Shown: in pieces, positions 19,322-36,160 of the stretch | How the letters are laid out: every line of letters begins with the position of its first letter | How positions within the stretch are numbered: the first letter of the stretch is position 1 | Assembly: GCA_041651495.1 (NCBI GenBank) | Contig: JBAZJC010000002.1 | Location: forward strand, 1-42,704 | Length of the DNA stretch: 42,704 nt | DNA from: Candidatus Omnitrophota bacterium | Lineage (GTDB): Bacteria > Omnitrophota > Omnitrophia > Omnitrophales > Aquincolibacteriaceae | Direction: 5' to 3' | Notes under the pieces: model-generated | Database searches by the model: none | Seen by the model: the letters and a program-made list of their open reading frames with translations, nothing else | What the model was told of the DNA's origin: nothing | Translations under genes and position numbers: made by a program

Positions 19322-20367
19322 CCGAAGAATTTCTGATATTCGCCATTGGCGCGATTAAAATCTTCCATTTGGCCGATATCGAGCCAATATTCCCTAATAG
19401 GAAAAGCAGCCACTCTTTTCCTCTCATCAATCAATCGGTCAAATAATTGCGGCATATCATAGGGCTTATTTTGGGGGACATACTTCAAAAGTGAGGGCTC
19501 CAACACATAGATTCCGGCGTTCACAAAAAAACGATGCACAGGCTTTTCATCAATCGCCCGAATATATTGTTGATCCATCGTAATCACCCCAAAAGGAACT
19601 TGAAAATCATATTCTCTAACACACATAGTCGCCGAAACATTATTTTCGTGATGAAAATTCAACAGATGCGAAAAATTGACCTTGGTCAACAAATCTCCGT
19701 TCATAACGATGAGCGGTTCTCTGGGTTTTTGAGGTAATAGACTCAGCGCACCTGCCGTTCCCAATCGCCGGCTCTCTTTAAGGTACTTCAGTTCGACGCC
19801 CCATTTGGAACCATCCCCAAAATAGTCACGGATCATTTCATCCAAATAGTTAACTGCCAAATAGAACTTTTTAAAACCGAACCCAACAAAATTCTCCAGG
19901 ATCGTCGCCAAAATAGGCTTGTCGCCAATATGAATAAGCGGTTTAGGACGGTCATTGGTAAGCGGCTTCAAACGACTGCCAAGACCACCGGCCATTAGAA
20001 GCACCCAATTTTCTCGACTTTTTGACTGAATGAGATCATCCAATATTTCAAGCCCTACAACACTCCCTCCTGCATCCAGAACCGGGATTTGATGGATGAA
20101 ATGTTTTTCCATCCTCTTCAACAATGATTCGCCCGTTTGCCCCATCTTCGCATAGATCGGCTTTGGATTCAGCACCAGTTGAACATTGTCGTCGAGGGAA
20201 ACACCCCTTAATATCCCGCGACGGACATCTCCATCAGTGACCGTCCCCAACAGCTTTCTTCTTTTCCCGACCACGACCGCGATCTGTGCAGAACTGGCAT
20301 CAATCGTTTTCAGAACACTTTTTATAGAATCTGACGGCAAAACAAGAGTCTTCTCCCAATCTTTCAT
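19318..20367 (-). CDS. CBS-pair + sugar-phosphate nucleotidyltransferase (PtmE-like)
   Basis: The N-terminal CBS pair is AVVVGKRRKLLGTVTDGDVRRGIL ... IHQIPVLDAGGSVVGLEILDDL. It is followed by the NTP-transferase motif LLMAGGLGSRLKPLTNDRPKPLIHIG. Confidence 0.8.
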   Translation of the reverse strand: MKDWEKTLVLPSDSIKSVLKTIDASSAQIAVVVGKRRKLLGTVTDGDVRRGILRGVSLDDNVQLVLNPKPIYAKMGQTGESLLKRMEKHFIHQIPVLDAGGSVVGLEILDDLIQSKSRENWVLLMAGGLGSRLKPLTNDRPKPLIHIGDKPILATILENFVGFGFKKFYLAVNYLDEMIRDYFGDGSKWGVELKYLKESRRLGTAGALSLLPQKPREPLIVMNGDLLTKVNFSHLLNFHHENNVSATMCVREYDFQVPFGVITMDQQYIRAIDEKPVHRFFVNAGIYVLEPSLLKYVPQNKPYDMPQLFDRLIDERKRVAAFPIREYWLDIGQMEDFNRANGEYQKFFG

Positions 20368-20393
20368 CTTAGGTGCTCCTGGTTAACATGGGT

Positions 20394-21617
20394 TTATGAA
20401 ACTCGAAATTTTAGTTTCCATTCGCCATGAATTTTTTCCCATAAATGCGGCGAACGATATCTGTCAATGATGTCCCAGAATTTCTCCTTGGTAATCCCGA
20501 TATATTCCAGAAAATCCTTAAAATGCCTCTCAGGGAACTCCCCATCAAACCTGCGAACAAGAGAGACACCTTCCTCGCGGGTAATATGATTATTCCGAAT
20601 TTCGATCGAAGCGTCCTCTGTACAACGGCCCCGCCCTGTTTTAATGAACCACGTGTAATAATGAAAATCGTCTACTTTATCATCCAAACTGGCGTATTTA
20701 CTGTATGTTCCCGGCGTTCGCCCATCCGGATTAACAGAAAAACCAGTATGCTCTATCGCATAATAGAAGTTTTTCTGCGGGTCATAATTCATGTAATAGG
20801 GCATGACATGAAATTCGATCCCTGAGCTCAAAAGCCGGTCGGCTTCCGCGGGCAGATAGGGATTTAGCTCTTTCATATTAATTCCATATTGAGACAAATC
20901 CTTGATCGGCACGCCTCCCAGGAAAATCTCATCTTTTTGTTCACGTGTAAACAATTTTGGGTCCATGCAGGGGCCATCCCATTTCACATCCCCGCCAAAT
21001 CCTCTTTCTGCGTAACTATCGCCAAAAAATATCAGCTTGATCCCTTTTTCCAGCGCAATCTTGGGGGCCAAGTTATATTGCCCTATGACAAAAGGCTGAA
21101 AGGGATGCAGCAGGTTTTCAAATGCAAGTCCCGTTAATTTCCGATGGACCTTTCCATTCGGTGTAAAAAGAACGTTGTCAAAGCCCGTATGAATCCACGC
21201 CTGAAAATTTTTCCATCCAATCTCGGTATAAATATGAGGTGCCCAGGTGACCGTTAACGGATTCATTCCATATTTATATTTGAGCATATGAGCTACATAA
21301 GCACTGTCTTTGCCTCCGCTCCCGGGAACCAGGACGTCATAATACCCGTCTTTGCGACGATGCCGGTTCAGCAAATCCCTTAGTTCCCTTTCCCGTTCTT
21401 CCCAATCGATCATTTTCTTTTTTTCATAATAACGGCAAGCCAGACAAACGCCTTCGTCATCGAACAAAACGGTCCTTTTTTTCGTCGTAGGCGTATCCTT
21501 GTGCTGAACCGATCCCAACATTCTCTGGTTCGACTCAACGCATTTCTTGCAATAAACCACTTTGGGAGGCAACCCAAAATAAGCTTGGCATTCTTCTTTC
21601 GATTCTTCCGGTTTCAT
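20394..21617 (-). CDS. N-acetyl sugar amidotransferase (PP-loop ATP-pyrophosphatase; WbpG/PseA family)
   Basis: The PP-loop is VLVPGSGGKDSAYVAHML. The N-terminus has paired Cys motifs (CKKCVESNQR ... CLACRYYEKK). The gene sits directly downstream of the hisF/hisH paralogs, as in known acetamidino-sugar loci. Confidence 0.8.
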   Translation of the reverse strand: MKPEESKEECQAYFGLPPKVVYCKKCVESNQRMLGSVQHKDTPTTKKRTVLFDDEGVCLACRYYEKKKMIDWEERERELRDLLNRHRRKDGYYDVLVPGSGGKDSAYVAHMLKYKYGMNPLTVTWAPHIYTEIGWKNFQAWIHTGFDNVLFTPNGKVHRKLTGLAFENLLHPFQPFVIGQYNLAPKIALEKGIKLIFFGDSYAERGFGGDVKWDGPCMDPKLFTREQKDEIFLGGVPIKDLSQYGINMKELNPYLPAEADRLLSSGIEFHVMPYYMNYDPQKNFYYAIEHTGFSVNPDGRTPGTYSKYASLDDKVDDFHYYTWFIKTGRGRCTEDASIEIRNNHITREEGVSLVRRFDGEFPERHFKDFLEYIGITKEKFWDIIDRYRSPHLWEKIHGEWKLKFRVS

Positions 21618-21678
21618 ACATTCCTCCTGTTTTCCATAATATTAATTATGATAAACTTCCATTAAAGAGCAATCACTC

Positions 21679-22341
21679 TTATGACGCTCCACCACGCGAG
21701 ATCATTTTCGAGAGATTCTGATAAATAGCAATTCCACTTGCGCCACTCCGTTCGGGATGAAATTGAAAACCATAAACATTGTCACTCTGGATCGCTGTCG
21801 CAAAACGGAACCCGCCATATTCAGTCCGCGAAAGCACAAGCTCGTTATTTTCCGGAGCGCAATAAAAAGAATGAACAAAATACATTGAGGTACCCTGCGG
21901 GATCCCGGAAAGCAGGGTATTTCCCCATCGATCATGCTTTTCCTCAGAAAAAATCGCGTTCCAGCCAATGTGCGGAACTTTCAAATTCTGGGCAGTGCCA
22001 AACTTCTCTCTCAACGGCAGCACACTTCCCGTGATTATGTCCAACCCTTTGTGCTGTCCAAATTCATGGCTCTGGGTCATCAAAAGCTGCATTCCCAAAC
22101 AAATCCCAATAAAAGGTTTCCCTTTTTTTATTTCCTCAATAAGAACCCCCTCCAGATCGAAGGCCTTAAGATCGGCCAAAGCCTTTCCGAAAGCACCGAC
22201 TCCAGGCAATATAATCGCGCTTGCATTCTGAATATCGCGAGGAGCATTGGTTACAAGGGCCTTCATCCCACAATATTCACAAGCGTGCTTCACGCTGAAG
22301 ATATTTCCCAAACCATAATCAATAATCGCAACAGACTTCAT
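21679..22341 (-). CDS. hisH: Imidazole glycerol phosphate synthase HisH-like glutamine amidotransferase paralog
   Basis: MKSVAIIDYGLGNIFSVKHA ... ILPGVGAFG ... GICLGMQLL ... FQFHPERSG is a class-I glutaminase triad context. Confidence 0.85.
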   Translation of the reverse strand: MKSVAIIDYGLGNIFSVKHACEYCGMKALVTNAPRDIQNASAIILPGVGAFGKALADLKAFDLEGVLIEEIKKGKPFIGICLGMQLLMTQSHEFGQHKGLDIITGSVLPLREKFGTAQNLKVPHIGWNAIFSEEKHDRWGNTLLSGIPQGTSMYFVHSFYCAPENNELVLSRTEYGGFRFATAIQSDNVYGFQFHPERSGASGIAIYQNLSKMISRGGAS

Positions 22342-22350
22342 TACGTACCC

Positions 22351-23190
22351 TCATCGAGCAGAAGAAATTCCCCGATTCACAAGGAATGTTCGCAAATCTG
22401 AAAGTTCAACTGTATCAACTTTTGAATATCCTTCGCCGCTCTGGATAAAATTAACATTACCTTCAGTAAACTCATTGGCATCCTGTTTGGCAACCTTAAT
22501 GCACTGATAATGCAAAATTGAACTCATGGCAACAGCATCAGCCTTTCCATCCACGATAGCTTCAAGAACATGATCGACGGTACCCGCCCCTCCCGCGGCG
22601 ATAACCGGAATAGAAACGCTTTCGGAAACGCTCCGGATTAATTCGATGTCGTATCCCTTGCCTGTTCCTTCACGATCAACCGCCGTCAACAATATTTCTC
22701 CTGCCCCGAGCTCAGCAACTTTTTTTGCCCACGCCACAGCTTCAAGTCCTGTCGGGATACGGCCATTATCCGTAAAACACTCATAGGTTCCATCTTTGCG
22801 CTTAATAACTTCCATCGATATAACAATAGTGGAAGAACCAAATGCACGCGAAGCCTCGCAGATCAATTGTGGATCCCGGACTGCAGCCGTGTTCAGCGAC
22901 ACCTTATCAGCACCGGCGCGAAGAATTGCCTTGATATCCTGAAGCGTTCGCAGACCCCCTCCCACCGTCAACGGAATGAATATTTCCCGTGATGTTCTCT
23001 CAACAATATGGATCAGGCTATTCCGTTCATACAAACTAGCAACTGCATCAATGTAAATAAGCTCATCTGCCCCAGCTTCATAATAATAGCGGGCAAAATT
23101 CTCCGGCTTTCCAAGGACTCTCAATCCTTCAAGGTGAATCCCCTTAACAAGATTGGAACCTTTAATATCTAACCTAGGAATCAATCTCAT
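22351..23190 (-). CDS. hisF: Imidazole glycerol phosphate synthase HisF-like cyclase paralog
   Basis: MRLIPRLDIKGSNLVKGIHLEGLRVLG ... GADELIYIDAVAS ... PLTVGGGLRTLQDIKAILRAGADKVSLNTAAV ... IAAGGAG. Confidence 0.85.
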   Translation of the reverse strand: MRLIPRLDIKGSNLVKGIHLEGLRVLGKPENFARYYYEAGADELIYIDAVASLYERNSLIHIVERTSREIFIPLTVGGGLRTLQDIKAILRAGADKVSLNTAAVRDPQLICEASRAFGSSTIVISMEVIKRKDGTYECFTDNGRIPTGLEAVAWAKKVAELGAGEILLTAVDREGTGKGYDIELIRSVSESVSIPVIAAGGAGTVDHVLEAIVDGKADAVAMSSILHYQCIKVAKQDANEFTEGNVNFIQSGEGYSKVDTVELSDLRTFLVNRGISSAR

Positions 23191-23948
23191 CGACGCACAA
23201 CCGTGATCCCGCGGTTCGTTGGGCTCGGCATCTTATTCTTTAAAATTAATTCGGCCATATGAAAGTCCCACGGCGTGTCAATGTCGAGAGATCGAGAAGC
23301 GGGCATTATGTACGGGAAAGATCTGCGAGGGTATAACGTCTTTTTTTCTTTCAAAACTGAGCTGCGAATAACATAAATCGCACCGTTAGGCGCGAAGCAT
23401 GCCGCAACCGGACGGTCCTGATAATATTTTATTTTCCGGAGCATGCCCTTACCGGTTAACTGCCATACGAGTGTGGTGTTTTTTTGTATCTCAAAAACGC
23501 TTACCACCGCATCCGCATTATTTTTAATGGCAATTTCAATTGCCGCATCAATATCGTCGGCCGTCCGCAGCGGCGATGTCGGTTGCAACAATACGATATA
23601 TTCAGGAAGTCTCTTCTCATGTTCCTCGAGCCATCTGAGAACATGGATGAGAACATCCATGTGGGGAGTACCGTCTTTCGCTAAAGCTGCCGGACGCATA
23701 AAAGGAACTCCGACTCCCCACTTTCTTGCCACCGCCGCGATACGACGATCATCTGTTGAGAGAATAACGTGATCCAAAAAACGGCTTTTCAAGGCCGCTT
23801 CCGCCGTCCATGCAATCAGCGGCTTCCCCAAAAGGTTCTTGACGTTCTTCCCAGGAAGCCTTTTTGATCCGCCTCGTGCAGTAATTAAACCGAGAGTATC
23901 GAACTTCCCGGGCATCATTTTAGTTTTTTTGGAAGGAGTGAAAATCAT
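23187..23948 (-). CDS. neuA: CMP-nonulosonate synthetase (acylneuraminate cytidylyltransferase family)
   Basis: LGLITARGGSKRLPGKNVKNLLGKPLIAWT ... VLLQPTSPLR. There are ATGA overlaps on both sides. ATG 23918/23915 are alternative starts. Confidence 0.85.
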   Translation of the reverse strand: MIFTPSKKTKMMPGKFDTLGLITARGGSKRLPGKNVKNLLGKPLIAWTAEAALKSRFLDHVILSTDDRRIAAVARKWGVGVPFMRPAALAKDGTPHMDVLIHVLRWLEEHEKRLPEYIVLLQPTSPLRTADDIDAAIEIAIKNNADAVVSVFEIQKNTTLVWQLTGKGMLRKIKYYQDRPVAACFAPNGAIYVIRSSVLKEKKTLYPRRSFPYIMPASRSLDIDTPWDFHMAELILKNKMPSPTNRGITVVRR

Positions 23949-25129
23949 ATCGTCATCTTCTTTTTTATCAATTCAGATCCAAGCTCAATCATGGCTAAGG
24001 TCTCTGCGATTTTTTTGCCGGCATCACCCACCCCGTACGGATTTTCACACTTCTTACAATGAGTTCTGAAATCCTCATCAAAAAGAGCCTTACGAATAGC
24101 CATCTTGATCTCTTCGTGAACATACCCGGCATCAAGAACATTCGTTGCGCGCAAACGCCCTTGCTGCCTTGATCCGATGTTCACTGCAGGACATCCCAAA
24201 GCAGGTGTTTCTTTAATACCGCTTGATGAGTTCCCAACGCAAACGCCGAGACCTCCCCCTAAACCACAATGGTAGAGGATTCCATGGTAGTTGTACCGTC
24301 CCAGGCTGCTGAAGACCTGCACGCCTTTGATCTTTTTCAAACTCCAAGCGTTCAACGCATCAATGATCCTCTTCCCTCCGGCATCATTATTGGGATAAGT
24401 TGCAATAATCTGACAGCCTTCCTTTGCCAGAATTTCCAAGACCTCAAGCGATGGCTTAAGCTGCACCATGGCATCGTCACATTCCGTAGCCACCGAATGT
24501 TGCGTGAAAAGAATAACAGGTTTTCCAAAATCGATCCCATAGCGTTTCTCAAGTTCAGCTTTTGACGCATAATTTCCAGCCGCAATCAGATCGATTGCAG
24601 GAAATCCGACATTGAAAACTCGCCATGGCTCCTCTCCCATTGTACGTATTCGACGAGCAGCATCTTCATTGGTCGTAAAATGAAGATGAGCAAGCTTGGT
24701 CATCGCATGGCGCACAGAATCATCAAGCGCGCCTCCTTCCGTAATATCCCCGCCCTCAATATGGACCGTCGGGATCCCCATCTGAGTACCTGCAATCACG
24801 GCCGCAAAACCTTCAAAACGATCCGCATAAACCACCAGAACATCCGGTTTCAGTTCGTCCAGGACCTTACTTATATTAATCACCCCGGAACCAATGGCCT
24901 GCGCGGTTGAAAACAACGAGTCCTGCGACATTTCTATCTTGATCTCACGAGCGATCTCAAAACCGTCATTTTGTATCTCAGCCAGTGTCTTCCCGAAATC
25001 CTTATCAAGATGGGCTCCGGAGACAAGAAGAAAATATTTTAACGCGGGATGCGCTTGAATTGCTTTTAGTATCGGATATTGAAGTCCATACTCTGCCCGA
25101 TTCCCTGTAAAAACCGCTATTTTTCGCAT
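23945..25129 (-). CDS. neuC: Hydrolysing NDP-N-acetylhexosamine 2-epimerase (NeuC/LegG family)
   Basis: MRKIAVFTGNRAEYGLQYPILKAIQAHP ... VHIEGGDITEGGALDDSVRHAMTKLAHLHF ... NSSSGIKETPALGCPAVNIGSRQQGR. Confidence 0.85.
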   Translation of the reverse strand: MRKIAVFTGNRAEYGLQYPILKAIQAHPALKYFLLVSGAHLDKDFGKTLAEIQNDGFEIAREIKIEMSQDSLFSTAQAIGSGVINISKVLDELKPDVLVVYADRFEGFAAVIAGTQMGIPTVHIEGGDITEGGALDDSVRHAMTKLAHLHFTTNEDAARRIRTMGEEPWRVFNVGFPAIDLIAAGNYASKAELEKRYGIDFGKPVILFTQHSVATECDDAMVQLKPSLEVLEILAKEGCQIIATYPNNDAGGKRIIDALNAWSLKKIKGVQVFSSLGRYNYHGILYHCGLGGGLGVCVGNSSSGIKETPALGCPAVNIGSRQQGRLRATNVLDAGYVHEEIKMAIRKALFDEDFRTHCKKCENPYGVGDAGKKIAETLAMIELGSELIKKKMTI

Positions 25130-26181
25130 GAAATCGGACCTCCTTCAAAGTTAAGAACATCTTCAGGACGGATGTGGGCATGGGCCAACAAGTCTCGTAC
25201 CGCAATTTTGTGAAGCACCTTATCAAGGTCTTTTGCCAAAATCGGACCTGTGCCGGGCCTTTTAACCCATGTATTTTCGCTATTGAAAGTTTCACCTTTT
25301 CGAATAGGTTTCGTTGTCACTACCGTAGCATAGGCAAAATCGATAACGGGTTGTTCCTCAGCTAAAATAGTTTTCGCCCCTCCACGGGCTTCCCAAATGG
25401 CACGACCGCCTTTGACTAACTCACCTAGCTCCTCCGGATTAATGGAGATGGGGATATCAGGCCCCGGCCAATCTCGACTGATCGTAAAATGTTTTTCCAC
25501 CGCAGTAGCACCTAAAGCGATGGCACCTAAGCATGTATAAATGCCCAAAGAATGGTCACTTAAGCCAACCTCCAGACCAAATTTTTCTTTGAGTTTGTGA
25601 ATAGCTGCCAACCTAACTTTATTGTAAGGCGTAGGGTACATGGAAGTGCAGTGCATGAGCATCAGCGAACAGCCCTGGGCCTGAATGATCTGGACCGATC
25701 TGGTAATCGACTCCATGTCGTTCATACCCGTCGATAAGATAATAGGCTTTTGGAACTTCGCGATATGTTCGATCAGCGGATAATTGTTGCACTCACCGGA
25801 GCCAATCTTAAACCCTGCCACCTTCATTCCGTTCAAACGATCAGCCGCAGCTCGTGAAAACGGCGTACTCAAAAACAAAATACCTTTTTTTTTGCAGTAG
25901 GCTTGAACTTCGACCTCTTCCTTGGGCGTCAGTTCGCACCGTTTAATAATGTCCCAAAGCCGCTCATTCGATATTTTCCCCGGCTTCATGTCGGTCGGGA
26001 TCATCTCCTCCTCGGTAATATGGCACTGAAATTTTACGCAATCGGCTCCGTGCTCCTTAGCCGCATCCACTAATTGAATCGCTTTCTCGATACTCCCTTC
26101 ATGATTGATTCCAACTTCCATCATCACAAAAGGTGGTTGATCCAGACCAATCTTGCGTCCCCCAATTTTAAAATCAGACAT
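25117..26181 (-). CDS. neuB: Nonulosonic acid synthase (NeuB/LegI/PseI family) with C-terminal SAF domain
   Basis: PPFVMMEVGINHEGSIEKAIQLVDAAKEHGADCVKFQ ... FKIGSGECNNYPLIEHIAKFQKPIILSTGM ... GLSDHSLG ... AVEKHFT, plus a SAF-like tail (PIRKGETFNSENTWVKRPGTG). Confidence 0.88.
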   Translation of the reverse strand: MSDFKIGGRKIGLDQPPFVMMEVGINHEGSIEKAIQLVDAAKEHGADCVKFQCHITEEEMIPTDMKPGKISNERLWDIIKRCELTPKEEVEVQAYCKKKGILFLSTPFSRAAADRLNGMKVAGFKIGSGECNNYPLIEHIAKFQKPIILSTGMNDMESITRSVQIIQAQGCSLMLMHCTSMYPTPYNKVRLAAIHKLKEKFGLEVGLSDHSLGIYTCLGAIALGATAVEKHFTISRDWPGPDIPISINPEELGELVKGGRAIWEARGGAKTILAEEQPVIDFAYATVVTTKPIRKGETFNSENTWVKRPGTGPILAKDLDKVLHKIAVRDLLAHAHIRPEDVLNFEGGPISCEK

Positions 26182-26231
26182 CGCTACTCCTCCATCAAAA
26201 GTGAATGTTATTTAACTTCAGCCGAAAGAGT

Positions 26232-27086
26232 TCAAACCCACGAAGCAACCAATTCTTTTAAACCTTCCCGCAAGCTAACGCGCGCGCTCCATCCATAACA
26301 CGTCTTCATTTTGGATGGATTTAAAATAAGAGAGGAACGGATATGATCGTGATCCACACAACAAACGCCGCGTTTTTTCTGCCCCGCAATATCCAACAAT
26401 TCTCGCGCCAAATTCGCTACGCTTGTTCCAATGCCTGTTCCCAAATTAAAAATCCCATATTGACTGCGGGTCGCCAGGCAAATCAATCCACAAATTACAT
26501 CTGCAACATAAATAAAATCCCGCACAGGCATTGAGCATTTCACTTTCACCGGTCCTGACTGACCCAACTGTCTCATAACACCGGAAAGAACACTTGTTTC
26601 TGACATCCCAAGACCATAGACGTTCGCTATTCTCGCCACGGTTTGGTGTTTTCTCAAGATCACTTCTTCAACTGCATATTTGAGCCGTGCATAAGCACCG
26701 GAAACACTGAGCGCTTCGTCCTCGCGATGTGGCGCTTCGGACAAATCTCCGTAAACAGCAGCACTCGATGCAAATACCACTCGGGCAAAACGTTGAGTGC
26801 AGAGGTGTTTGGCCAGCGCTACGGCTTCCGGCAAGGCCGAATCGGTCTGGCTTTCCACTGCGAGGACATTATTATCACCCGCCAAATGCACGCAAACTGT
26901 GTCAGGGGTACCCATGACCTCGAGATAATTTTTAACACGCGTATATTCAATTCCAGGCTTTGCTCTAAAATCGCATTTTCTCCCGTACGCATGCACCGCA
27001 AACCCCTGACGCAATAGCTCAGAGCAAAGTGCGTGGCCAATAAATCCCGTAGCGCCCGTAACCGCAAAACGGATTTTGTTAGACAT
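26232..27086 (-). CDS. Short extended-SDR NAD(P)-dependent reductase/epimerase; candidate 4-ketoreductase
   Basis: 284 aa. The N-terminus is RFAVTGATGFIGHALCSELLRQGF and the catalytic Y-x3-K is YARLK. It overlaps the upstream dehydratase gene by 8 nt. Confidence 0.65.
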   Translation of the reverse strand: MSNKIRFAVTGATGFIGHALCSELLRQGFAVHAYGRKCDFRAKPGIEYTRVKNYLEVMGTPDTVCVHLAGDNNVLAVESQTDSALPEAVALAKHLCTQRFARVVFASSAAVYGDLSEAPHREDEALSVSGAYARLKYAVEEVILRKHQTVARIANVYGLGMSETSVLSGVMRQLGQSGPVKVKCSMPVRDFIYVADVICGLICLATRSQYGIFNLGTGIGTSVANLARELLDIAGQKKRGVCCVDHDHIRSSLILNPSKMKTCYGWSARVSLREGLKELVASWV

Positions 27087-28089
27087 TATAGGTGTCGATC
27101 TTATACGAAACCAAATTTTTTCTGTCCGTAAACCATTGTATTGTTTCCATCAGACCCTTTCGGAAGCCATCTTCACCGCCATAGACCGGATTCCATCCTA
27201 ATAGCTTCCTAGCTTTCGAATTGTCGGACCATAAGCGCTCCACTTCACTCTTGAGGGGGCGGATGCGTTCGGACTGCGATTTTATCTTGATCTTAAAGTT
27301 CATAAGCTCAGCGATTAATTGCGCGATATCTCCTATCGAAATCTCAAAATTGCTCCCCAAGTTGAGCACTTCCCCTGCAGATTTCGGGGTTTCCAAAGCA
27401 GCCGAATAGGCACGTGCGGTATCCTTGACAAAAGAGAGATCCCGAGTAGGGTGCAAACTCCCGAGCTTGATTGTACGTGAGCCGCTTGCGATCTGCGTAA
27501 TGATCGTGGGAATCACGGCTCTGGCAGATTGCCGCGGGCCGTAGGTATTGAAAGGCCGTATGATCGTGACGGGCGTTCCAAAAGAGCAAAAGAAAGACAT
27601 CGCAAGCTGATCGGCTCCGATCTTGCTCGCCGAATAAGGTGACTGTCCCTGTAGCGGATGATCTTCGGTAATAGGGACAAATTTTGCCGTTCCATACACT
27701 TCGCTCGTAGAAGTATGGATGACCCGCGAAAGTCCTAGCTCGCGAGCAGCCTGCAGAACATTAAGAGTGCCTTTGACGTTCGTATCAATGTAAGTATCCG
27801 GCGAATGGTAGGAATAAGGGATCCCGATCAAAGCGGCAAGGTGCATCACAGCATCACAGCCCCGCATCGCCTTTTTCACTCCGTGGGGATCACGGATATC
27901 CCCGGAAAAAACATCCAAGGTGTCTTTGACTGTTACGGGCAGCGTATCGAGCCACCCCCAGGAATTAAAGGAATTGTAAAGAACAAAGGCCCGAACATCA
28001 TAGCCTTCTTCCAAAAGATACTCTACAAGATGCGAGCCTATAAAGCCATCCGCACCCGTGACAAGAATTTTCTTTTTAAATTTCGGCAT
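27079..28089 (-). CDS. NAD-dependent NDP-HexNAc 4,6-dehydratase, LegB-like
   Basis: KKILVTGADGFIGSHLVEYLLEEGYDVRAFVLYNSFNSWGWLD matches my recollection of the LegB (Cj1319-type) N-terminus, including the YNSFN-WG-L block. The catalytic motif is YSASK. Confidence 0.7.
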   Translation of the reverse strand: MPKFKKKILVTGADGFIGSHLVEYLLEEGYDVRAFVLYNSFNSWGWLDTLPVTVKDTLDVFSGDIRDPHGVKKAMRGCDAVMHLAALIGIPYSYHSPDTYIDTNVKGTLNVLQAARELGLSRVIHTSTSEVYGTAKFVPITEDHPLQGQSPYSASKIGADQLAMSFFCSFGTPVTIIRPFNTYGPRQSARAVIPTIITQIASGSRTIKLGSLHPTRDLSFVKDTARAYSAALETPKSAGEVLNLGSNFEISIGDIAQLIAELMNFKIKIKSQSERIRPLKSEVERLWSDNSKARKLLGWNPVYGGEDGFRKGLMETIQWFTDRKNLVSYKIDTYNV

Positions 28090-28109: not shown

Positions 28110-28349
28110 TTACTCGTCAATATCCTTGTGAACCCAATGCCTGGCTTTGTTGTAGACCTTGCCAACTCGATCTTCAATCTTTGGCGATAAGACACGCAAA
28201 AGTTCTTTCCCCATGATTCGGTACTGTTTACCGATCTTCGCAGCCCTTATCATCCCACTTTTGATCATACGCAACATGGTACTCGGGGAGATCTTTAAAT
28301 ACTCCTGGGTCTCTTTGGGCGTATATAAATCGTTTTCATCAATTTTCAT
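28110..28349 (-). CDS. Small helix-turn-helix DNA-binding protein (excisionase/MerR-like HTH_17 type)
   Basis: MKIDENDLYTPKETQEYLKISPSTMLRMIKSGMIRAAKIGKQYRI. ATG 28349 is preceded by AAGGG. The ORF-track start at 28397 lies upstream of the predicted -10 box, so it is unlikely. The gene ends 20 nt upstream of the dehydratase gene. Confidence 0.75.
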   Translation of the reverse strand: MKIDENDLYTPKETQEYLKISPSTMLRMIKSGMIRAAKIGKQYRIMGKELLRVLSPKIEDRVGKVYNKARHWVHKDIDE

Positions 28350-28378: not shown

Positions 28379-28407
28379 AATATAACTTTAACACCATTAG
28401 ATGTCAA
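28379..28407 (-). promoter_or_regulatory. Sigma70-like promoter for the HTH + nonulosonate operon
   Basis: The minus strand reads TTGACA (28407..28402), a 17-nt spacer, then TATATT (28384..28379). This lies about 30 nt upstream of ATG 28349, in the only sizeable (151-nt) AT-rich gap of the region. Confidence 0.55.
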
Positions 28408-28548: not shown

Positions 28549-30114
28549 TCATCCGTTGAGAGACGATGGGGAATGCTTCATAAACATATTGTATCGCTTA
28601 AGCCGCTTATTGCGGATGGATTCTTCTATAGAAGCAAGCCAAAGGGACAAAATTTTGAGAACCCAACCAGAAAAAATATTGTCTTTTTCGCAAAATCGAA
28701 TAACCGGGAAAAACACCCTAGGAAGACGGACATAGAATGGGAACATCTTTTGTAGTGCTTTTAATTCATTTTTTGAAATTTGAGGCATATCCAAAATAGG
28801 CTCTCCCCGCGTCCCGTGCCCCAGCTTCATATCCGAGCGGATAAATTTTTCTTTCAGAGCCATTTCTCGGATCCGGGTCCCTTTGTAGGGCACCAAAAAA
28901 CAATTACTCAAACCATCGGGCTGCGTTTTTTTATTCATCTCGATGGTGTCAAATACCATTTTTCTTGTTTCAAAAGGATTTCCGATTATGTTCGTTGAGG
29001 AGACCCGGACACCCTCAGCTTTGATGGTGGCAAAAGCTTTGACAAGCTGGTCGTTCGAGATGTATCGGTCGAACACTTTGTTTTTAATAAAATCATTTCC
29101 GCTTTCAATGCTCATACAAAATGTAACGCACCCCGCATCTCGCAACAACACAACCTTTTCACGAGATATCGTGGGAGCAGCCACTTGGATAACAAATGGC
29201 AAACCGATTCTCTCTTTATACTGATCGGTAAACTCCCGCATCTCCTCGAGAGGAAGCAAGGTAAAATCGTCATCCACAAAAAAAATCATGGTCAGATTGT
29301 GTTTTTTCTTTAAGAACTCCATTTCCTGCATAACTCGCTCAATACTCTTCCGGCGAATATAGGCCCCTTTACCTTGATACAAATTTTGAAGAACATGGTT
29401 ATTACAATACGTACACCTTCGAGGACAACCCCTCGTAAATTCCACCATGGCCATCCGATAGACCACACCATCTATCGGACGGTAAAAATGCTTTTCACTG
29501 AATTCGTCAAAATCCGGAATGGGTATCTCGTTCAGATCCTTCAAAGGCCTGACTTCATTTTTAATAATCTGGCCATCTCGTTTGATCCACATATTCTTTA
29601 TTCCGCTAATATCCTCCTCTTTCTCGCTTTTTGTAATAAATTCAAGAAGGCTGTCCTCTCCTTCGCCAATGTTAATCACATCGACAAAAGGATGCGCAAT
29701 GTACTCTTCAGGGGACATCGTGACCGCAATCCCTCCAAAAATAAACGGCATTTTAGGATATGCTTTTCGAATCCCCGCGGCCAAGAACTGACTGAAATCA
29801 GCACAATCTTCTGTCATAACGGAAAAGGCGATTAAATCGGGGTTGAAACCCTTTATCACTCGAGTGCAATCCGCGAGAACGTCTTGAACCGAAGCCGCCT
29901 GGTACGTAACTCCATACTGATTCAAATCGGCAAATCTAACTTGATGCGTCTTTGTGCGGATATCGTCATCGTTTTCGGAAAACAGCTTATAAAAAGAGGT
30001 GTCAAACACTTTCACTTCATGTCCGTTTTTTTTCAAAATTGAAACTAAAATAGAGATTCCTGGAGGAATCCTGGTATAGCCCATGTTATTCGGATAAACA
30101 AACAAAACTCTCAT
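28549..30114 (-). CDS. B12-binding (class B) radical SAM enzyme
   Basis: The N-terminal cobalamin-binding-type Rossmann segment is MRVLFVYPNNMGYTRIPPGISILVSILKKNGHEVKVFD. The radical-SAM cluster motif is VEFTRGCPRRCTYCNNH (C-x3-C-x2-C). ATG 30114 is preferred over the ORF-track TTG 30126, which abuts the AAGGAG Shine-Dalgarno. Confidence 0.8.
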   Translation of the reverse strand: MRVLFVYPNNMGYTRIPPGISILVSILKKNGHEVKVFDTSFYKLFSENDDDIRTKTHQVRFADLNQYGVTYQAASVQDVLADCTRVIKGFNPDLIAFSVMTEDCADFSQFLAAGIRKAYPKMPFIFGGIAVTMSPEEYIAHPFVDVINIGEGEDSLLEFITKSEKEEDISGIKNMWIKRDGQIIKNEVRPLKDLNEIPIPDFDEFSEKHFYRPIDGVVYRMAMVEFTRGCPRRCTYCNNHVLQNLYQGKGAYIRRKSIERVMQEMEFLKKKHNLTMIFFVDDDFTLLPLEEMREFTDQYKERIGLPFVIQVAAPTISREKVVLLRDAGCVTFCMSIESGNDFIKNKVFDRYISNDQLVKAFATIKAEGVRVSSTNIIGNPFETRKMVFDTIEMNKKTQPDGLSNCFLVPYKGTRIREMALKEKFIRSDMKLGHGTRGEPILDMPQISKNELKALQKMFPFYVRLPRVFFPVIRFCEKDNIFSGWVLKILSLWLASIEESIRNKRLKRYNMFMKHSPSSLNG

Positions 30115-30167
30115 GATAAAGTACAACTCCTTTTTAAAATGTTCGGCTCTATTGTAGCATTAAACAC

Positions 30168-32033
30168 CTAGATCAGCTTATACAGAATATATTGGTACCG
30201 CTTATCGAGGACATTTAATGACCGGTGCGAAATCAAAATCTGACTAAGATTTCTACTTTTCAGGAAAGAATCAATCGGGCGGGGATTTTCCGCGGGAACA
30301 TCAAGCCGAGTGCGATCGCCGACCTCTTGTGTATCCAAAATATGCGTGATTCCCTTTTCTTTCAAAATAGTCGCCATAGCTGCCGGAGAATTCTGATTCT
30401 TGTAATGGGTTCGTATATTAAAATCAGCATCCAGAACAACTTCCCGGTCAAAATAAAACAAATGGACCTCTTCCAATATCAAAATTTTTGAGTTTGAAGG
30501 TAAGTTTTGGTTGACCCATCGGGCGATTGGGATTGTTCGCTCCATTTTTTCAAGATATTCTCCACTGCTCCAAACTCCAGACACCCGTAGGAATTGATAA
30601 CGAAAATGATAGGCAGTCAGAGTCAACATGGACACAATGGCCAGACCAGCCACAGTTTTCGTAAAAAAGTTTTCCCACCGTTTTTGAGAGACACTGTTCT
30701 TCAAATCACTCAACCCCATAGCCGCCGCCACTAAATAAATCGGCAAGGTTGGCATGAGATATCGGACATTCTGACCCGTAAAATACCAAAAGACCGTAAA
30801 AGAAAGTGTGAATTGGAGATACGGAAGAGACTTTTTCATCTTGAATGCCGCATAGCCGACAAATGGAATTACAGACAGGTAGAAGGGGCCTACCCAATGG
30901 TGATAATCAAAATACAGCGGCTTGAATGTAATATCCCACGGGATCGCTAAAAAAGATCCCAGAGATCTCGGAAGCCCCATGCGAAAATAAATCGAGGAAA
31001 ACAGTGAGAGATCTTCGGTTCCGAATAACGAACCTAAATAGGGATAAATTGGGTTCCCGGTATAGATCCAATCCCTTATAAACCAATACGCGGAGGCCAA
31101 CAACACACCCAACGCAAAGTAAGCCCCGACGATTACGACTCGTGTTTTGACACCACGCTGAAACGCCCGAAGACCGAGCATGACCATGATGGCAAAAAAA
31201 GCGCCCAGAGATAAAGAGCGGATCGCAACCGCTAAGCCGACCAGCAGTCCCCCGAAAAAGAAAGCCGTTGGATTTAGATCATCAAAACCTTCGATGACAA
31301 CGCAACATCCCAAGAATATGAACAAAGACACCCCTGCATCGATGTAGGTGGTGGTGATCTGGTTCATCAAAGTGGGAGTGAGCCACAACATCAAACCCCA
31401 AAAAAGCGCCAGCTTCTTGCTTTTGGAAACTTCTTCAACTTTAATCGTTAGGGCGCTGACAAGAAGGAATCCACAGAACCAGTGAAAAAATTTCGCGATC
31501 GTAACATTCTGGAATAAAAGTCCCGTGGAGTAAAAAACGCTCATTAAGAGAGGACGATATGAAGCTATATCGTAAAAGGATGGAGAAACCGAGGCATTCT
31601 TCACAAAAAGCTTTGCGACATAAAGCTGGATTGCCAAAGCGTCGTTCGCGATTTCCGGGAGGAAGCAGAACGACGCCGTTAAAAAAAATGTTCCGATTAA
31701 CGAAAATTGACAGATGCGGCTAAAAATATCGTGCGTTTCCCCAAAAAACCGTAACACATCTCTAAACCATCGAAAGACCCCCTTCCCCGTTCGCCAACCT
31801 AAGATTAAGGAAAGGGCGAAAAAACATAAAACTGTTCCGGGTTTCAGCCAACTCAAAGAGCCTGCTAGGATCATAAAATAAGCATAGAGGCCCAGCCCAA
31901 ACCCTAATGTAAGAATTCCTGAAAACAAAGGGTTTCGCTCTCGCAGGCAAAACCCGACAAACGAACCGCTATTCCATAAGGTGGGTAGTAGTACAAACCA
32001 AAAAGCTATAGCAAAAAATGGCCCCTGGCTCAT
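30168..32033 (-). CDS. ArnT/PMT_2-like GT-C membrane glycosyltransferase
   Basis: 621-aa polytopic ORF. The loop motif is LPEIANDALAIQLYVAKLF. The block IRDWIYTGNPIYPY is one I associate with GT39/ArnT-like proteins. A soluble C-terminal domain follows. Confidence 0.6.
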   Translation of the reverse strand: MSQGPFFAIAFWFVLLPTLWNSGSFVGFCLRERNPLFSGILTLGFGLGLYAYFMILAGSLSWLKPGTVLCFFALSLILGWRTGKGVFRWFRDVLRFFGETHDIFSRICQFSLIGTFFLTASFCFLPEIANDALAIQLYVAKLFVKNASVSPSFYDIASYRPLLMSVFYSTGLLFQNVTIAKFFHWFCGFLLVSALTIKVEEVSKSKKLALFWGLMLWLTPTLMNQITTTYIDAGVSLFIFLGCCVVIEGFDDLNPTAFFFGGLLVGLAVAIRSLSLGAFFAIMVMLGLRAFQRGVKTRVVIVGAYFALGVLLASAYWFIRDWIYTGNPIYPYLGSLFGTEDLSLFSSIYFRMGLPRSLGSFLAIPWDITFKPLYFDYHHWVGPFYLSVIPFVGYAAFKMKKSLPYLQFTLSFTVFWYFTGQNVRYLMPTLPIYLVAAAMGLSDLKNSVSQKRWENFFTKTVAGLAIVSMLTLTAYHFRYQFLRVSGVWSSGEYLEKMERTIPIARWVNQNLPSNSKILILEEVHLFYFDREVVLDADFNIRTHYKNQNSPAAMATILKEKGITHILDTQEVGDRTRLDVPAENPRPIDSFLKSRNLSQILISHRSLNVLDKRYQYILYKLI

Positions 32034-32036
32034 TTT

Positions 32037-34373
32037 CTAATCTTTCGAAAAAGGTTTATAACAAAATTGTATTTTATGAATTCCTGGGCCATCGATCCTG
32101 ACCGCACGGAAAAGTCCGTCGGCTTTTAGAATAGCGACGGGTTCATCGTTAACCGTAACATTCCACCCCGGATAAAACGTCTCGGAAACTACAAAAAAGC
32201 CAGCCTGCGTGGTTTCAACTTGCCATTCCTCAAGATTCTCCTGACGATTTTGAAGCCGTATCGTTGCCTCCGAATCCTTTTGGGCTTCCAATTCGAAAGA
32301 TTTGATCTTCTTGAGCTCCTCTTTTTCAAGCAACAAAGTTTGTTTTGGATCGAACTGGGGTGCCATCAGTTTCACACGCAGATCGTCCCAGGTTTCAGCC
32401 ACCTCAACCCGACTGATAAAATACGCCTGTTGATGAACTTCTGCATTCTTGTAAAGATAACTCCCAAGCTGATTATCGCGATCCAAAAGCGTTAAGTCAG
32501 CATGTTCAAGCGGCTGCGCGCTCATCACATGCGAAACATTCAGAAAACCAAGAAGCGGAAGCCTTTGTAATGCGAATTCCGGAGAAGGCGATCGCTGAAA
32601 ATTCGAATCATTAACATTCCCTAAAAGGCCTAGCGACTCATAATATCTTTTAGGAACCAAGGGAGAATAAATTCCGATATCCTCGATCCCATAAAGCATG
32701 TTTTGTCCTGGGACAAAAGGCAATCGTTGGCCCACGGAACGAAAGCCATAAACCCTTCCGACATTTCCCGCCGTCTTTTCCCGTTCAAGGGCTTCAAGGA
32801 TCGGCGAAGAAACCAAAGTCGTTTTGTAGGAAGCGAGATCATACCGGATATCCAGGAAAGATGCCGCGTAAAGATCCACCACCAGAAACAAGATTCCCAC
32901 AACCAACAAAAATCTCGTGAGGATCTTTTTCCGGAGAAACACCGCCAGAAGAGCCACACAAAAAACCGACATCGCAATCATCCGGATATTCGCCGAATCG
33001 CTGAAAGAAAGATATCTCAACACCTGCCCCGGATAGTTTTTTACACCCTCAAGATAGGTTTCCAGAGAATGAGGATGCCCCGGTTTGGCGTAAATAAATC
33101 GCATCACGAAAAATTCACCCAGCTTCATGGCGATATCTTTTCCCGCGGTCAGGAGCAGGTTCCCGACGCCCATGAGCGCTACAAAAACTGCTACGATCGT
33201 AAGATAGAAATAAAATGCTTTTTTGATCAAAGCCTGAGTCGATCTTCCCTGCCAAAGAACCTGAAAACCTGCCGCACTCAACATCGCAAGCCCGAAGGAG
33301 ATAAATCCAAGGAATTTTGCCGGGACACGGAAAGAATAGAATTTTGTGATCTTGATAAAAGCAACATAAAGTGGGCTCCATCGGCCCAAAGCGAGCAAAA
33401 GAGCAAGAAGCGTCATCACAACCCATAGCTTCAAAGTCTGGCTTTTTCGCATGTCTGGTGAAATCAACGCGTAGAGAATCAGAAAGAGCGCAAAAGATCC
33501 GACATAAAGGTTATTGCCTCGGAAGATGAGCGACAGGTTCGGGATAACCAAAGTGCCAAGAACCATCGGTGACATCGATCCCACATAAGCATAACCTTCT
33601 TCAAGACCAGTCCGGTTTGACATCATAGCAAGCTGAAATGTCAAATAGATCTGGGGCAAAGCGATCACGAGCGCTAATACAGCGGTACCTGCCAACATCC
33701 CAAGAGTTAAAGCTTTTTTTGTCCACGGGACCGATTCTTCAGGAAAGATGAAGATCCTCACAAGGATATAAACACCAAATATCAGCCAAGTCAGTACTGC
33801 CATCTGAAGATAACCCGCCACAAGTGATTGACCGATAACAAGGGCCATCCCGAAAAGAAAACGTCCCTTTCGTTCTTCCAGAAAACGCTCCAAAAAATAG
33901 AGCACGACAGGAAACCAGCAAATCGTCTTCAGAGACGTCATATTGTAATAAGCACCGCCATAGGCCGATCCGAACACAAAGACCACAGCCGCAACAAACG
34001 AGGGCATGGCTTCCAGATTCATCCGTCGTGCGTATGCATAAGTCCCCCACCCCGCGATAAACCAATGCAACAGGTTCATGTACGAGTACGCTATCTGAAA
34101 TGGAAGAAGTCCGTAGAGGATCAAGTTGGGGAGATAGAAAACACCGATCTGGCTTTCAGCCACAAGCGGAAAACCGCACTGGATCAAGGGAGTCCAGAAC
34201 GGCAATTTGAAATCTTTGAGAGAACAGGCAAGCTGAAATGCCCAAGGGTAATGCTGTTCCAGATGGTCACCGATAAGCGGCGCTGTTCTCGCCAGAAAAA
34301 GATCAGGATAAAAAAAAAGAAGCAATCCGAGTAATCCAAAAACCGCAAAAATGTCTTTTCGGCTAAACATCAT
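32037..34373 (-). CDS. YfhO-family GT-C membrane glycosyltransferase, paralog 2
   Basis: 778 aa. The N-terminal block is IGDHLEQHYPWAFQLACSLKDFKLPFWTPLIQCGFPL. The C-terminal block is GWNVTVNDEPVAILKADGLFRAVRIDGPGIHKIQFCYKP. Confidence 0.75.
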   Translation of the reverse strand: MMFSRKDIFAVFGLLGLLLFFYPDLFLARTAPLIGDHLEQHYPWAFQLACSLKDFKLPFWTPLIQCGFPLVAESQIGVFYLPNLILYGLLPFQIAYSYMNLLHWFIAGWGTYAYARRMNLEAMPSFVAAVVFVFGSAYGGAYYNMTSLKTICWFPVVLYFLERFLEERKGRFLFGMALVIGQSLVAGYLQMAVLTWLIFGVYILVRIFIFPEESVPWTKKALTLGMLAGTAVLALVIALPQIYLTFQLAMMSNRTGLEEGYAYVGSMSPMVLGTLVIPNLSLIFRGNNLYVGSFALFLILYALISPDMRKSQTLKLWVVMTLLALLLALGRWSPLYVAFIKITKFYSFRVPAKFLGFISFGLAMLSAAGFQVLWQGRSTQALIKKAFYFYLTIVAVFVALMGVGNLLLTAGKDIAMKLGEFFVMRFIYAKPGHPHSLETYLEGVKNYPGQVLRYLSFSDSANIRMIAMSVFCVALLAVFLRKKILTRFLLVVGILFLVVDLYAASFLDIRYDLASYKTTLVSSPILEALEREKTAGNVGRVYGFRSVGQRLPFVPGQNMLYGIEDIGIYSPLVPKRYYESLGLLGNVNDSNFQRSPSPEFALQRLPLLGFLNVSHVMSAQPLEHADLTLLDRDNQLGSYLYKNAEVHQQAYFISRVEVAETWDDLRVKLMAPQFDPKQTLLLEKEELKKIKSFELEAQKDSEATIRLQNRQENLEEWQVETTQAGFFVVSETFYPGWNVTVNDEPVAILKADGLFRAVRIDGPGIHKIQFCYKPFSKD

Positions 34374-34397
34374 CGGATTGCCCGAGGCTCAAGACAA

Positions 34398-35393
34398 TCA
34401 AGCGCGTTTCCAGGACGGAGGTAACTTGATGGAAACTTCAATGTTTTGAAATTCCTGACTTTTTCGAGCGCCATGCTTTTGAGCCCATGCGGCCATTTTT
34501 CTGAGACCCTCTTCCAGAGAAACCTTGGGAATCGCTCCCAAGACCTCGCGCGCCTTCGCATGGTCGGAATAGGCTTCCTGCACTTCGTTGCGTTGTTCCA
34601 GATATTCGATCTTCGGCACAACCCCGAGCGATTTGGCAACTTCAGCGGCTAAATAATTAACGGTGTAGGGTTGATCCGCCCCAATATTGAAAGCCTGGTT
34701 GTAGGCTCCTGTCACACCGATCGAACGCGCAATGACCGGCGCCACATCATTAATATACGAAAAGGCGCGTTTTTGTGTCCCATCGCCAAAGATGGTCATC
34801 GGAAGACCTTGCATGATCTGATTCATGAAGATCCCCACTACATTGCGATATTTATCGCCGATATTTTGTTTTTCACCGTAAACATTGTGGGGACGAAAAA
34901 CAATGTAGTTCAGACCGAACATTTCATGAGACACCTTGAGATCCTGTTCGACAGCATATTTAGCAATACCATAAGGATCCTCGGGTTGCGGAATCAGCTC
35001 CTCACACATCGGCACTTGGTTCTTGCCATAAACAGCAATGGAAGATGTGAACACAAAACATTTCACTTGATGCAGCACGGAAAGGTTGATCAGGTTGACA
35101 GATCCGATCAGATTGTTTTCGTAGTTAAAACGCTTAATGAAATGACTCAGGCCTTCCGCAGCATAGGCCGCGAGGTGAAAAACGTATTGGAAAGAATGCT
35201 TCTCAAAAAGGGTCTTGAGCAGGTCCGGATCAAGAACAGACCCTCTTACAAACGATGCGCCCGAGGGGACATTTTCTTTGAACCCGCCGCTCAAATCATC
35301 CAGCACCCAAACATCATGTCCCTGACGAAGCAGCTCTTGGGAAACATGCGCCCCGATAAAACCGGCGCCCCCCGTGACAAGAACATTTGCCAT
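34398..35393 (-). CDS. NAD-dependent nucleotide-sugar epimerase/dehydratase (GalE/WbpP-like extended SDR)
   Basis: MANVLVTGGAGFIGAHVSQELLRQGHDVWVLDDLSGG, with catalytic YGIAK. There is a 1-nt stop/start overlap with the upstream GT2. Confidence 0.8.
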   Translation of the reverse strand: MANVLVTGGAGFIGAHVSQELLRQGHDVWVLDDLSGGFKENVPSGASFVRGSVLDPDLLKTLFEKHSFQYVFHLAAYAAEGLSHFIKRFNYENNLIGSVNLINLSVLHQVKCFVFTSSIAVYGKNQVPMCEELIPQPEDPYGIAKYAVEQDLKVSHEMFGLNYIVFRPHNVYGEKQNIGDKYRNVVGIFMNQIMQGLPMTIFGDGTQKRAFSYINDVAPVIARSIGVTGAYNQAFNIGADQPYTVNYLAAEVAKSLGVVPKIEYLEQRNEVQEAYSDHAKAREVLGAIPKVSLEEGLRKMAAWAQKHGARKSQEFQNIEVSIKLPPSWKRA

Positions 35394-36154: not shown

Positions 36155-36160
36155 GAGACG

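Follow-up and report, generated by a model that had tools for sequence, protein, structure and literature searches.

A B12-binding-type radical SAM enzyme of Candidatus Omnitrophota from a clade with a probable role in nonulosonic acid pathways

The radical SAM gene and its protein

We analysed a 42,704-nucleotide stretch of a Candidatus Omnitrophota genome (assembly GCA_041651495.1, contig JBAZJC010000002.1, positions 1 to 42,704 of the forward strand; hereafter the window), which carries on its minus strand a gene for a 521-residue radical S-adenosylmethionine (SAM) enzyme of the B12-binding type. Two genes for membrane proteins that resemble glycosyltransferases of the GT-C fold lie directly upstream, and an operon for a legionaminic-type nonulosonic acid (NulO) starts 460 bp downstream (Table 1). 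The region was found in one sequencing run only, a landfill metagenome. A plus-strand reading of the gene interval was rejected, as it contains stops throughout. Translation starts at an ATG (position 30114) with an AGGAG sequence 12 nt upstream; an alternative TTG start at 30126 is unlikely, because the homologue alignments open at the identical MRVLF N-terminus. The G+C fraction of the gene is slightly below that of its neighbours (0.40–0.43 versus 0.45–0.49).

The protein has the architecture of a class B radical SAM enzyme, i.e. an N-terminal Rossmann-type B12-binding domain fused to a radical SAM core. The N-terminal domain matched PF02310 (B12-binding) over residues 69–158 with 52.7 bits (cut-off 32.1), and the core matched PF04055 (Radical_SAM) over residues 224–392 with 78.8 bits (cut-off 29.5), which places the protein in the radical SAM superfamily by the Pfam gathering threshold. 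The three cysteines of the CX3CX2C [4Fe-4S] motif CPRRCTYC (C230, C234 and C237) and the flanking RG showed no variation across 32 homologues with identities as low as 31%, and nor did G127, G128, G150 and G152 of the N-terminal GG and GEGE motifs. The original prediction, made from the DNA letters and their translations, had read a B12-binding-type N-terminal domain followed by a CPRRCTYC cluster motif, and had named loss of the cluster cysteines as evidence against its reading; both features were recovered and the cysteines are retained.

An AlphaFold2 model built from the homologue alignment (mean predicted local distance difference test score 94.3, predicted template modelling score 0.91) gave MgmA, CysS, TsrM, OxsB, TokK and AprD4 as its best matches among solved structures (Foldseek E ∼1e-18 to 1e-20). 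In sequence, a profile of the family covered the N-terminal domain of the cobalamin binders TokK, OxsB, CysS, TsrM and MgmA. No NCBIfam model reached its cut-off for the enzyme. The best score, 99.6 bits, came from HpnJ (cut-off 577.6); the model for C-methyltransferases of ribosomally synthesised and post-translationally modified peptides (RiPPs) gave 89.6 bits (cut-off 281.85), PhpK 88 (600), BchE 88 (481) and HpnR 64 (650). The KedN5, BzaD, MgmA and ladderane lipid enzyme models were also below cut-off, with class B models other than HpnJ scoring 50–90 bits against cut-offs of 250–750, and the AprD4 model NF033070 scored 44.1 bits against 500, over residues 192–429 only. The protein therefore matches neither housekeeping nor characterised class B families such as BchE and HpnR, as had been expected. 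Since no curated family claims the enzyme, genomic context was used to address its function.

Comparison with individual solved structures gave a similar picture. TokK/ThnK and CysS (PDB 7kdx and 9n1b), which are cobalamin radical SAM C-methyltransferases, share with the window enzyme the Rossmann cobalamin domain, the radical SAM core and the helical C-terminal part, together with the GEGE motif and CX3CX2C; the family profile spans both domains of these proteins. Identity is only 15–17%, the two are longer (∼620–680 aa versus 521 aa), and they act on a carbapenem and on a pantetheinylated precursor rather than on sugars; their genes belong to secondary-metabolite clusters and not to surface glycan loci. 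The top structural match was MgmA/QCMT, the methyl-coenzyme M reductase glutamine C-methyltransferase (PDB 9ccb; E = 5.8e-20, target-normalised template modelling (TM) score 0.75). This cobalamin-dependent methylase has a similar compact size and, like the subclade of the window enzyme, is without the His of the common GGxH motif, but it acts on a protein substrate in archaeal methanogenesis, and its model TIGR04014 gave 57 bits against a cut-off of 360. AprD4 (PDB 6fd2), a radical SAM 1,2-diol dehydratase from the apramycin pathway, has an amino sugar as its substrate, and in structure it is no further from the window enzyme than the methylases are. In contrast to the methylases, it binds no cobalamin (PMC12931638), and its N-terminal domain is not alignable with that of the window family. 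Cobalamin-dependent methylation of unactivated carbon or phosphorus is the activity of most characterised enzymes with such an architecture, although a B12-like Rossmann domain is no guarantee of cobalamin binding, AprD4 and ArsL-type proteins being examples that bind none (2026 review, PMC12931638).

Among 5.8 billion proteins, the closest homologues of the enzyme were 57% and 48% identical and carried generic names only. Close relatives of the 48%-identity homologue (identity to it above 90%) have been deposited under both a Candidatus Brocadiaceae and a Maribacter metagenome-assembled genome, which suggests either recent horizontal transfer of a cassette or a binning error.

Table 1. Positions of the features discussed. 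Coordinates refer to the window unless a homologue locus (L number) is named.
Feature	Position	Strand	Basis or remark
B12-binding-type radical SAM enzyme gene, 521 aa	28549..30114, stop codon included	minus	Open reading frame translation, Pfam, AlphaFold2 model, Foldseek
N-terminal Rossmann-type B12-binding domain core, residues 69–158, including GG127–128 and GEGE150–153	29641..29910	minus	PF02310
Radical SAM core domain, residues 224–392	28939..29445	minus	PF04055
CX3CX2C [4Fe-4S] motif CPRRCTYC	29404..29427	minus	Translation; invariant in two alignments
Legionaminic-type NulO operon, proposed functional partner	19318..28089	minus	NCBIfam and Pfam
HTH_17 (excisionase-type) DNA-binding protein, first gene of the NulO operon	28110..28349	minus	PF12728, 48.2 bits
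Promoter-like site TTGACA-17-TATATT between radical SAM and HTH genes	28379..28407	minus	11/12 consensus matches; consensus match only
Two GT-C-like membrane protein genes	30168..34373	minus	621 aa, PMT-like (30168-32033); 778 aa, YfhO-like (32037-34373)
Five-gene module (class I methyltransferase, polyprenyl-phosphate GT2, SDR, 778-aa and 621-aa proteins)	30168-36955; L167 5087-11860; L166 5142-11854	minus (window)	
HTH_17 homologues	L166 20143-20385; L167 12058-12330; L003 6687-6917		Head NulO operons, Leg-like and Pse-like
655-aa orphan	17354-19321	minus	
2-Oxoacid:ferredoxin oxidoreductase alpha, beta and gamma subunits	37784-40133	minus	
Second B12-radical SAM genes	L003 13342-14790; L004 6330-7790; L005 13801-15186; L007 8646-9992; L091 1237-2622; L168 5891-7315		
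Family of ∼605–658 aa	L008 153-2093; also L087, L090, L091, L095, L009, L010		

Nonulosonic acid genes beside the enzyme and its homologues

Downstream of the radical SAM gene, an HTH_17 gene is followed in order by genes for LegB, a 284-aa short-chain dehydrogenase/reductase (SDR), a NeuB-type synthase, a NeuC-type hydrolysing 2-epimerase, a PseF-like cytidylyltransferase that would form the cytidine monophosphate (CMP)-linked sugar, the WbuZ/HisH/WbuX acetamidino triad and a CBS-nucleotidyltransferase (PtmE-like). LegB (TIGR04180, 517.6 bits, cut-off 475), NeuC (392.6 bits) and WbuX (328.4 bits) scored above their NCBIfam cut-offs; NeuB gave 365.9 bits and the PseF-like protein 160.7 bits. 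The NeuB and CMP-transferase genes are 2.4 kb and 4.6 kb from the radical SAM gene on the same strand, within the ∼6 kb used to define NulO context across the clade. The same enzyme families make up the Campylobacter jejuni CMP-legionaminic acid pathway (PtmE, LegB, LegC, LegH, LegG, LegI and LegF) and recur in homologue loci L004 and L169. In contrast to C. jejuni, the LegC and LegH steps are absent from the window operon, and no DegT-type aminotransferase (LegC) or PglD-type acetyltransferase (LegH) was found among the large open reading frames of the 42.7-kb contig. Because LegC and LegH are missing and an SDR follows LegB, the predicted product is a 9-deoxy, 7-hydroxy, 5-acetamid(in)o NulO, unless the genome encodes the two steps outside this contig. 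The characterised C. jejuni pathway contains, to our knowledge, no radical SAM enzyme.

The neighbourhoods of homologues were examined in five of the closest homologues on long contigs (57–36% identity) and in a wider sample of 160 loci from species-representative genomes and metagenomes, taken from among the matches listed and made up mainly of relatives with ≤38% identity; together these are the 165 homologue loci. In all five near loci the gene lay inside a NulO cluster, with a NeuB-type synthase or CTP_transf_3 cytidylyltransferase gene adjacent or one gene off, and CTP_transf_3 itself was present in 5/5. NeuC-type epimerases, DegT aminotransferases, PtmE-like nucleotidyltransferases, and GFO/IDH/MocA and short-chain oxidoreductases were found in many of them. 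For three more homologues (35–38% identity) the prediction was set beforehand: a cytidylyltransferase was adjacent or near in 3/3, and NeuB was directly downstream in 2/3. Taken together, the eight Pfam-annotated loci have a CMP-sugar cytidylyltransferase within ∼3.5 kb in every case and NeuB in seven. L169 is a textbook legionaminic acid operon in which the enzyme gene sits between a PglD-like acetyltransferase gene and NeuB; cytidylyltransferase genes overlap or abut the enzyme homologue in L001, L002, L168 and L170, and GFO_IDH_MocA and short-chain reductase genes adjoin it in L001, L004, L005, L169 and L170. The NulO operon of L005 is orthologous to that of the window (63% identity for LegB, 63% for NeuB, 62% for NeuC and 53% for the PtmE-like protein), and its radical SAM homologue, 40% identical and in the same four-row tree subclade as the window protein, lies inside that operon.

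A crude count over all 165 loci showed little NulO association, since the sample consists mainly of distant relatives. When neighbours within 6 kb were clustered without prior labels and loci were divided by similarity of the enzyme (close loci, ≥250 bits to the window protein), a cytidylyltransferase family was present in 19/37 close loci versus 5/127 of the rest, and NeuB in 12/37 versus 1/127. A FastTree phylogeny of 228 relatives placed the window protein in a 55-member clade (local support 93), nested in sets of two, three and four rows (support 99, 99 and 96) and of seven rows (92). When the count was confined to rows flanked by 8 kb or more, NeuB and/or a cytidylyltransferase lay within 6 kb in 25/37 members of the clade versus 8/146 outside it (odds ratio 36, Fisher p = 3e-15), and six of those eight positives outside were second paralogues in the same loci. 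All seven members of the window subclade were positive, and the signal extends across many subclades and phyla (Patescibacteria, Planctomycetota, Elusimicrobia, Nitrospirota, Woesearchaeota and Lokiarchaeia, names as deposited). The cytidylyltransferase hidden Markov model was imperfect, as it missed the true copy of L005, and the negative counts are therefore upper bounds. With a clade-specific profile, full-length matches above 406 bits formed at least 150 representative clusters at 50% identity, which makes doubtful the earlier suggestion that a modification of this kind would be rare.

Proposed function and competing explanations

We propose, with a probability of roughly 0.6, that the enzyme belongs to a class-B-type radical SAM clade dedicated to pathways of CMP-activated NulOs of the legionaminic or pseudaminic type, perhaps C-methylating, and that here it serves the downstream operon rather than the upstream GT-C module. 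The parts of this proposal differ in strength. The enzyme very probably works in a NulO pathway and probably binds cobalamin, as its N-terminal domain suggests; the reaction itself is held more loosely, C-methylation of the NulO, of its N-acyl group or of a precursor being a tentative assignment by analogy, at somewhat less than even odds. In this reaction, the reduced [4Fe-4S] cluster would cleave SAM to a 5′-deoxyadenosyl radical, and this radical would remove a hydrogen from the substrate (the NulO, its N-acyl group or a nucleotide-sugar precursor) at an unactivated sp3 carbon. Methylcobalamin, regenerated by a second SAM, would then donate a methyl group to the substrate radical. The resulting sugar, sialic-acid-like and C-methylated ('ten-carbon'), would subsequently be transferred to the surface glycan. 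A CMP-linked sugar is a plausible substrate, because cytidylyltransferase genes abut or overlap the enzyme homologues and by analogy with Fom3. In fosfomycin biosynthesis, Fom3 is a class B methylase acting on CMP-linked hydroxyethylphosphonate, and GenK and GenD1 carry out cobalamin radical SAM C-methylation of aminoglycoside sugar carbons; these enzymes are precedents in chemistry, and none of them is known from a NulO pathway.

Several observations weigh against this proposal. The promoter-like site and the HTH gene separate the radical SAM gene from the NulO operon. Because that site precedes the HTH gene, and because only 53 bp separate the radical SAM gene from the 621-aa gene, the radical SAM gene is probably transcribed with the upstream GT-C unit; the terminator-like hairpin that follows it is no better than chance (2 found versus 2.6 expected). 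The top profile match among solved structures, at 108 bits, is AprD4, a diol dehydratase without cobalamin (PMC12931638), and the best NCBIfam model, HpnJ, is no methylase. Within the clade, 12/37 well-flanked members have neither NeuB nor a CMP-transferase within 6 kb, the tree rows are related sequences and not independent events, and the tree was made with FastTree only. The pathway role and reaction proposed for the clade are drawn from sequence, a structural model and genomic context.

Some of these points would suit a different reaction within the same NulO pathway, in which the enzyme acts on the NulO or a nucleotide-sugar precursor without methylating it and cobalamin is optional. Candidate reactions are dehydration or deoxygenation with a subsequent reductase step (AprD4/AprD3-like), rearrangement of the skeleton (OxsB- or HpnJ-like), epimerisation and oxidation. 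The AprD4 match extends over residues 190–449 (target-normalised TM score 0.72), HpnJ has been proposed to act on an amino sugar, and the GFO_IDH_MocA and short-chain reductases encoded beside homologues could reduce a keto product. In addition, the sugar predicted for the window would keep a 7,8-diol, because no aminotransferase is present, and the review cited above cautions that B12-like Rossmann domains may not bind cobalamin (PMC12931638). However, the alignment to AprD4 is confined to the radical SAM core, whereas TokK, OxsB, CysS, TsrM and MgmA align over the N-terminal domain, and the curated AprD4 model is far from its cut-off. Most homologue loci also look 5,7-diamino (legionaminic or pseudaminic acid), and such products are without vicinal diols. 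Trios of GFO, SDR and cytidylyltransferase genes occur in the Campylobacter legionaminic acid locus without a radical SAM enzyme, and hence are not specific partners of the enzyme. A non-methylating reaction is the main rival, possible but on the doubtful side.

The original prediction had looked for the function of the enzyme in the other direction, towards the two GT-C genes directly upstream on the same strand. The 778-aa and 621-aa proteins are polytopic (one with 8 and the other with 11 hydropathy peaks) and neither has a Pfam match of its own. The 778-aa protein aligned end to end with the Pfam-positive YfhO protein of the window (20% identity, 848 columns, E = 5e-11), and homologues of the 621-aa protein with 25–33% identity are annotated PMT or PMT_2, so a GT-C assignment is plausible for both on this remote evidence. 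Together with genes for a class I methyltransferase, a PpgS/AglJ-like polyprenyl-phosphate glycosyltransferase of family 2 (GT2) and an SDR, they form a five-gene module that resembles CsbB/YfhO-type extracytoplasmic glycosylation systems. A role with this module, in modifying a lipid-linked sugar or the polyprenyl carrier, would agree with the gene arrangement: the radical SAM gene is co-directional with the 621-aa gene, no convincing terminator lies between them, and a weak terminator-like hairpin with a strong promoter-like site after the radical SAM gene makes it probably the last gene of the upstream unit. The module is found without the enzyme, however. In L167 it is collinear (74% nucleotide identity over 6.6 kb, with GT2 95% identical), and the HTH gene and a NulO operon of the pseudaminic type come directly after it; in L166 other genes come next, and an HTH-LegB-DegT operon lies ∼8 kb beyond. 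No orthologue of the radical SAM enzyme follows the 621-aa gene in either locus. The only B12-radical SAM gene of L167, at the far end of the NulO operon and inside it, was rejected as an orthologue, since it shares only 23% identity with the window enzyme and falls in another paralogue family. Similarly, tblastn found no homologue of the 778-aa or the 621-aa protein in the 165 enzyme-homologue loci, among the matches listed. Because the module exists without the enzyme gene and never accompanies enzyme homologues, we interpret the enzyme gene as an accessory gene of a variable NulO region; the two GT-C-like genes are, as far as comparison of loci tells, its neighbours and not its conserved partners. 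Joint action with the GT-C module is accordingly judged improbable.

Least probable of all is a radical SAM enzyme unrelated to the glycan, such as a RiPP maturase, a tetrapyrrole or hopanoid enzyme or another housekeeping protein that is here by chance. The similarity to RiPP C-methyltransferase, BchE and HpnJ/HpnR models that might suggest one is sub-threshold, with scores 4- to 10-fold under the curated cut-offs, and no precursor peptide, peptidase, tetrapyrrole or hopanoid genes were found in the 42.7-kb window. In agreement with the original prediction, the neighbourhood contains neither a peptidase gene nor a precursor-like open reading frame, the only small one being the HTH_17 regulator. 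The glycan context is, moreover, strongly conserved among enzyme homologues.

The overall interpretation first offered for the gene is consequently upheld in part. The reading of the protein as a radical SAM enzyme of the class B type, encoded in a glycan locus, is supported by the domain architecture, the fold and the neighbouring NulO operon, and a sugar is a likely substrate, given the conserved NulO context; the functional link to the GT-C genes or the polyprenyl carrier did not hold. The conserved neighbourhood is one of glycan genes, as had been supposed, but its partners are NeuB, CMP-cytidylyltransferase and NeuC, which had not been connected to the gene.

NulOs decorate flagella, capsules, lipopolysaccharide and S-layers, and shape immune and phage recognition. 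Their known diversity lies in N-acyl and O-substituents and in stereochemistry, and we know of no enzyme described for a radical, carbon-level modification of a NulO. Literature searches, within the library available, turned up nothing that ties radical SAM enzymes to the biosynthesis of nonulosonic, legionaminic or pseudaminic acids, and NulO sugars are unmentioned in the 2026 review of B12-radical SAM enzymes (PMC12931638). New here is the association of an established class of enzymes with a pathway from which it had not been described, within a clade that is large and uncharacterised. If C-methylation or another radical step on NulOs is true, carbon-level modification would be a new axis of NulO diversity, and could give a function to part of the very large unannotated pool of B12-radical SAM proteins; with a single gene beside a defined pathway, the clade is a tractable entry point. 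It could also explain unexplained masses: 'potential higher carbon' (∼ten-carbon) ulosonic acids of unexplained origin were recorded in a mass-spectrometric survey (PMC8157484), and a C-methylated NulO would look like these compounds. A bolder and more speculative version of the proposal, which we consider rather unlikely as it stands, is that the clade is the missing enzymology of the 'higher-carbon' ulosonic acids, C-methylating CMP-activated legionaminic- and pseudaminic-type sugars, and that branched or chain-extended surface sugars occur widely among uncultured anaerobes (Omnitrophota, Patescibacteria, Planctomycetota, DPANN and Asgard archaea).

Further features of the window and of related loci

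The HTH_17 gene starts with an ATG (position 28349) downstream of the promoter-like site. Its product is 73–79% identical to the proteins of HTH genes heading the NulO operons of L166 and L167, and 62% identical to that of the Patescibacteria locus L003. With homologues at the head of both Leg-like and Pse-like operons, this protein is a candidate dedicated regulator of NulO cassettes.

At the other end of the operon, a 655-aa orphan is encoded between the nucleotidyltransferase gene and a wzx-like flippase gene. Its sole similarity is a weak C-terminal match (25 bits) to TIGR04396 ('surface carbohydrate biosynthesis protein'), and it is a candidate NulO transferase. It was also considered as a relative of a ∼647-aa family encoded after the enzyme in sister-clade loci, but the two are unrelated.

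Upstream of the five-gene module, genes for a 2-oxoacid:ferredoxin oxidoreductase (alpha, beta and gamma subunits) lie between GT2 and PMT-type GT-C genes, and the VorB-like alpha subunit scored above its cut-off (507 bits). A pyruvate/2-oxoacid:ferredoxin oxidoreductase was rejected as a conserved partner of the enzyme, since it was present in 1/170 loci and was absent from the syntenic L167. The oxidoreductase could be a source of reduced ferredoxin for radical SAM enzymes; alternatively, it could belong to unrelated central metabolism.

A second B12-binding radical SAM gene occurs in several of the NulO loci that carry an enzyme homologue, and, where a score was obtained, its product shares 20–26% identity with the window protein. 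Four of these second paralogues group together on the tree, which covers all of them but that of L168, and that of L003 falls elsewhere, in the distant 65-row group. Radical SAM/SPASM genes are also recurrent in such loci (L001 and L002). NulO pathways with a second paralogue or SPASM genes may include several radical steps.

In a sister subclade, genes for a family of ∼605–658 aa without a Pfam match lie beside the radical SAM gene (8/37 close loci versus 1/127 of the rest). This family co-occurs with 2-hydroxyacid dehydrogenase, HAD phosphatase, class I/II aminotransferase, transaldolase-like and cytidylyltransferase genes, often without NeuB, and these loci may encode a different pathway for a CMP-activated acid sugar.

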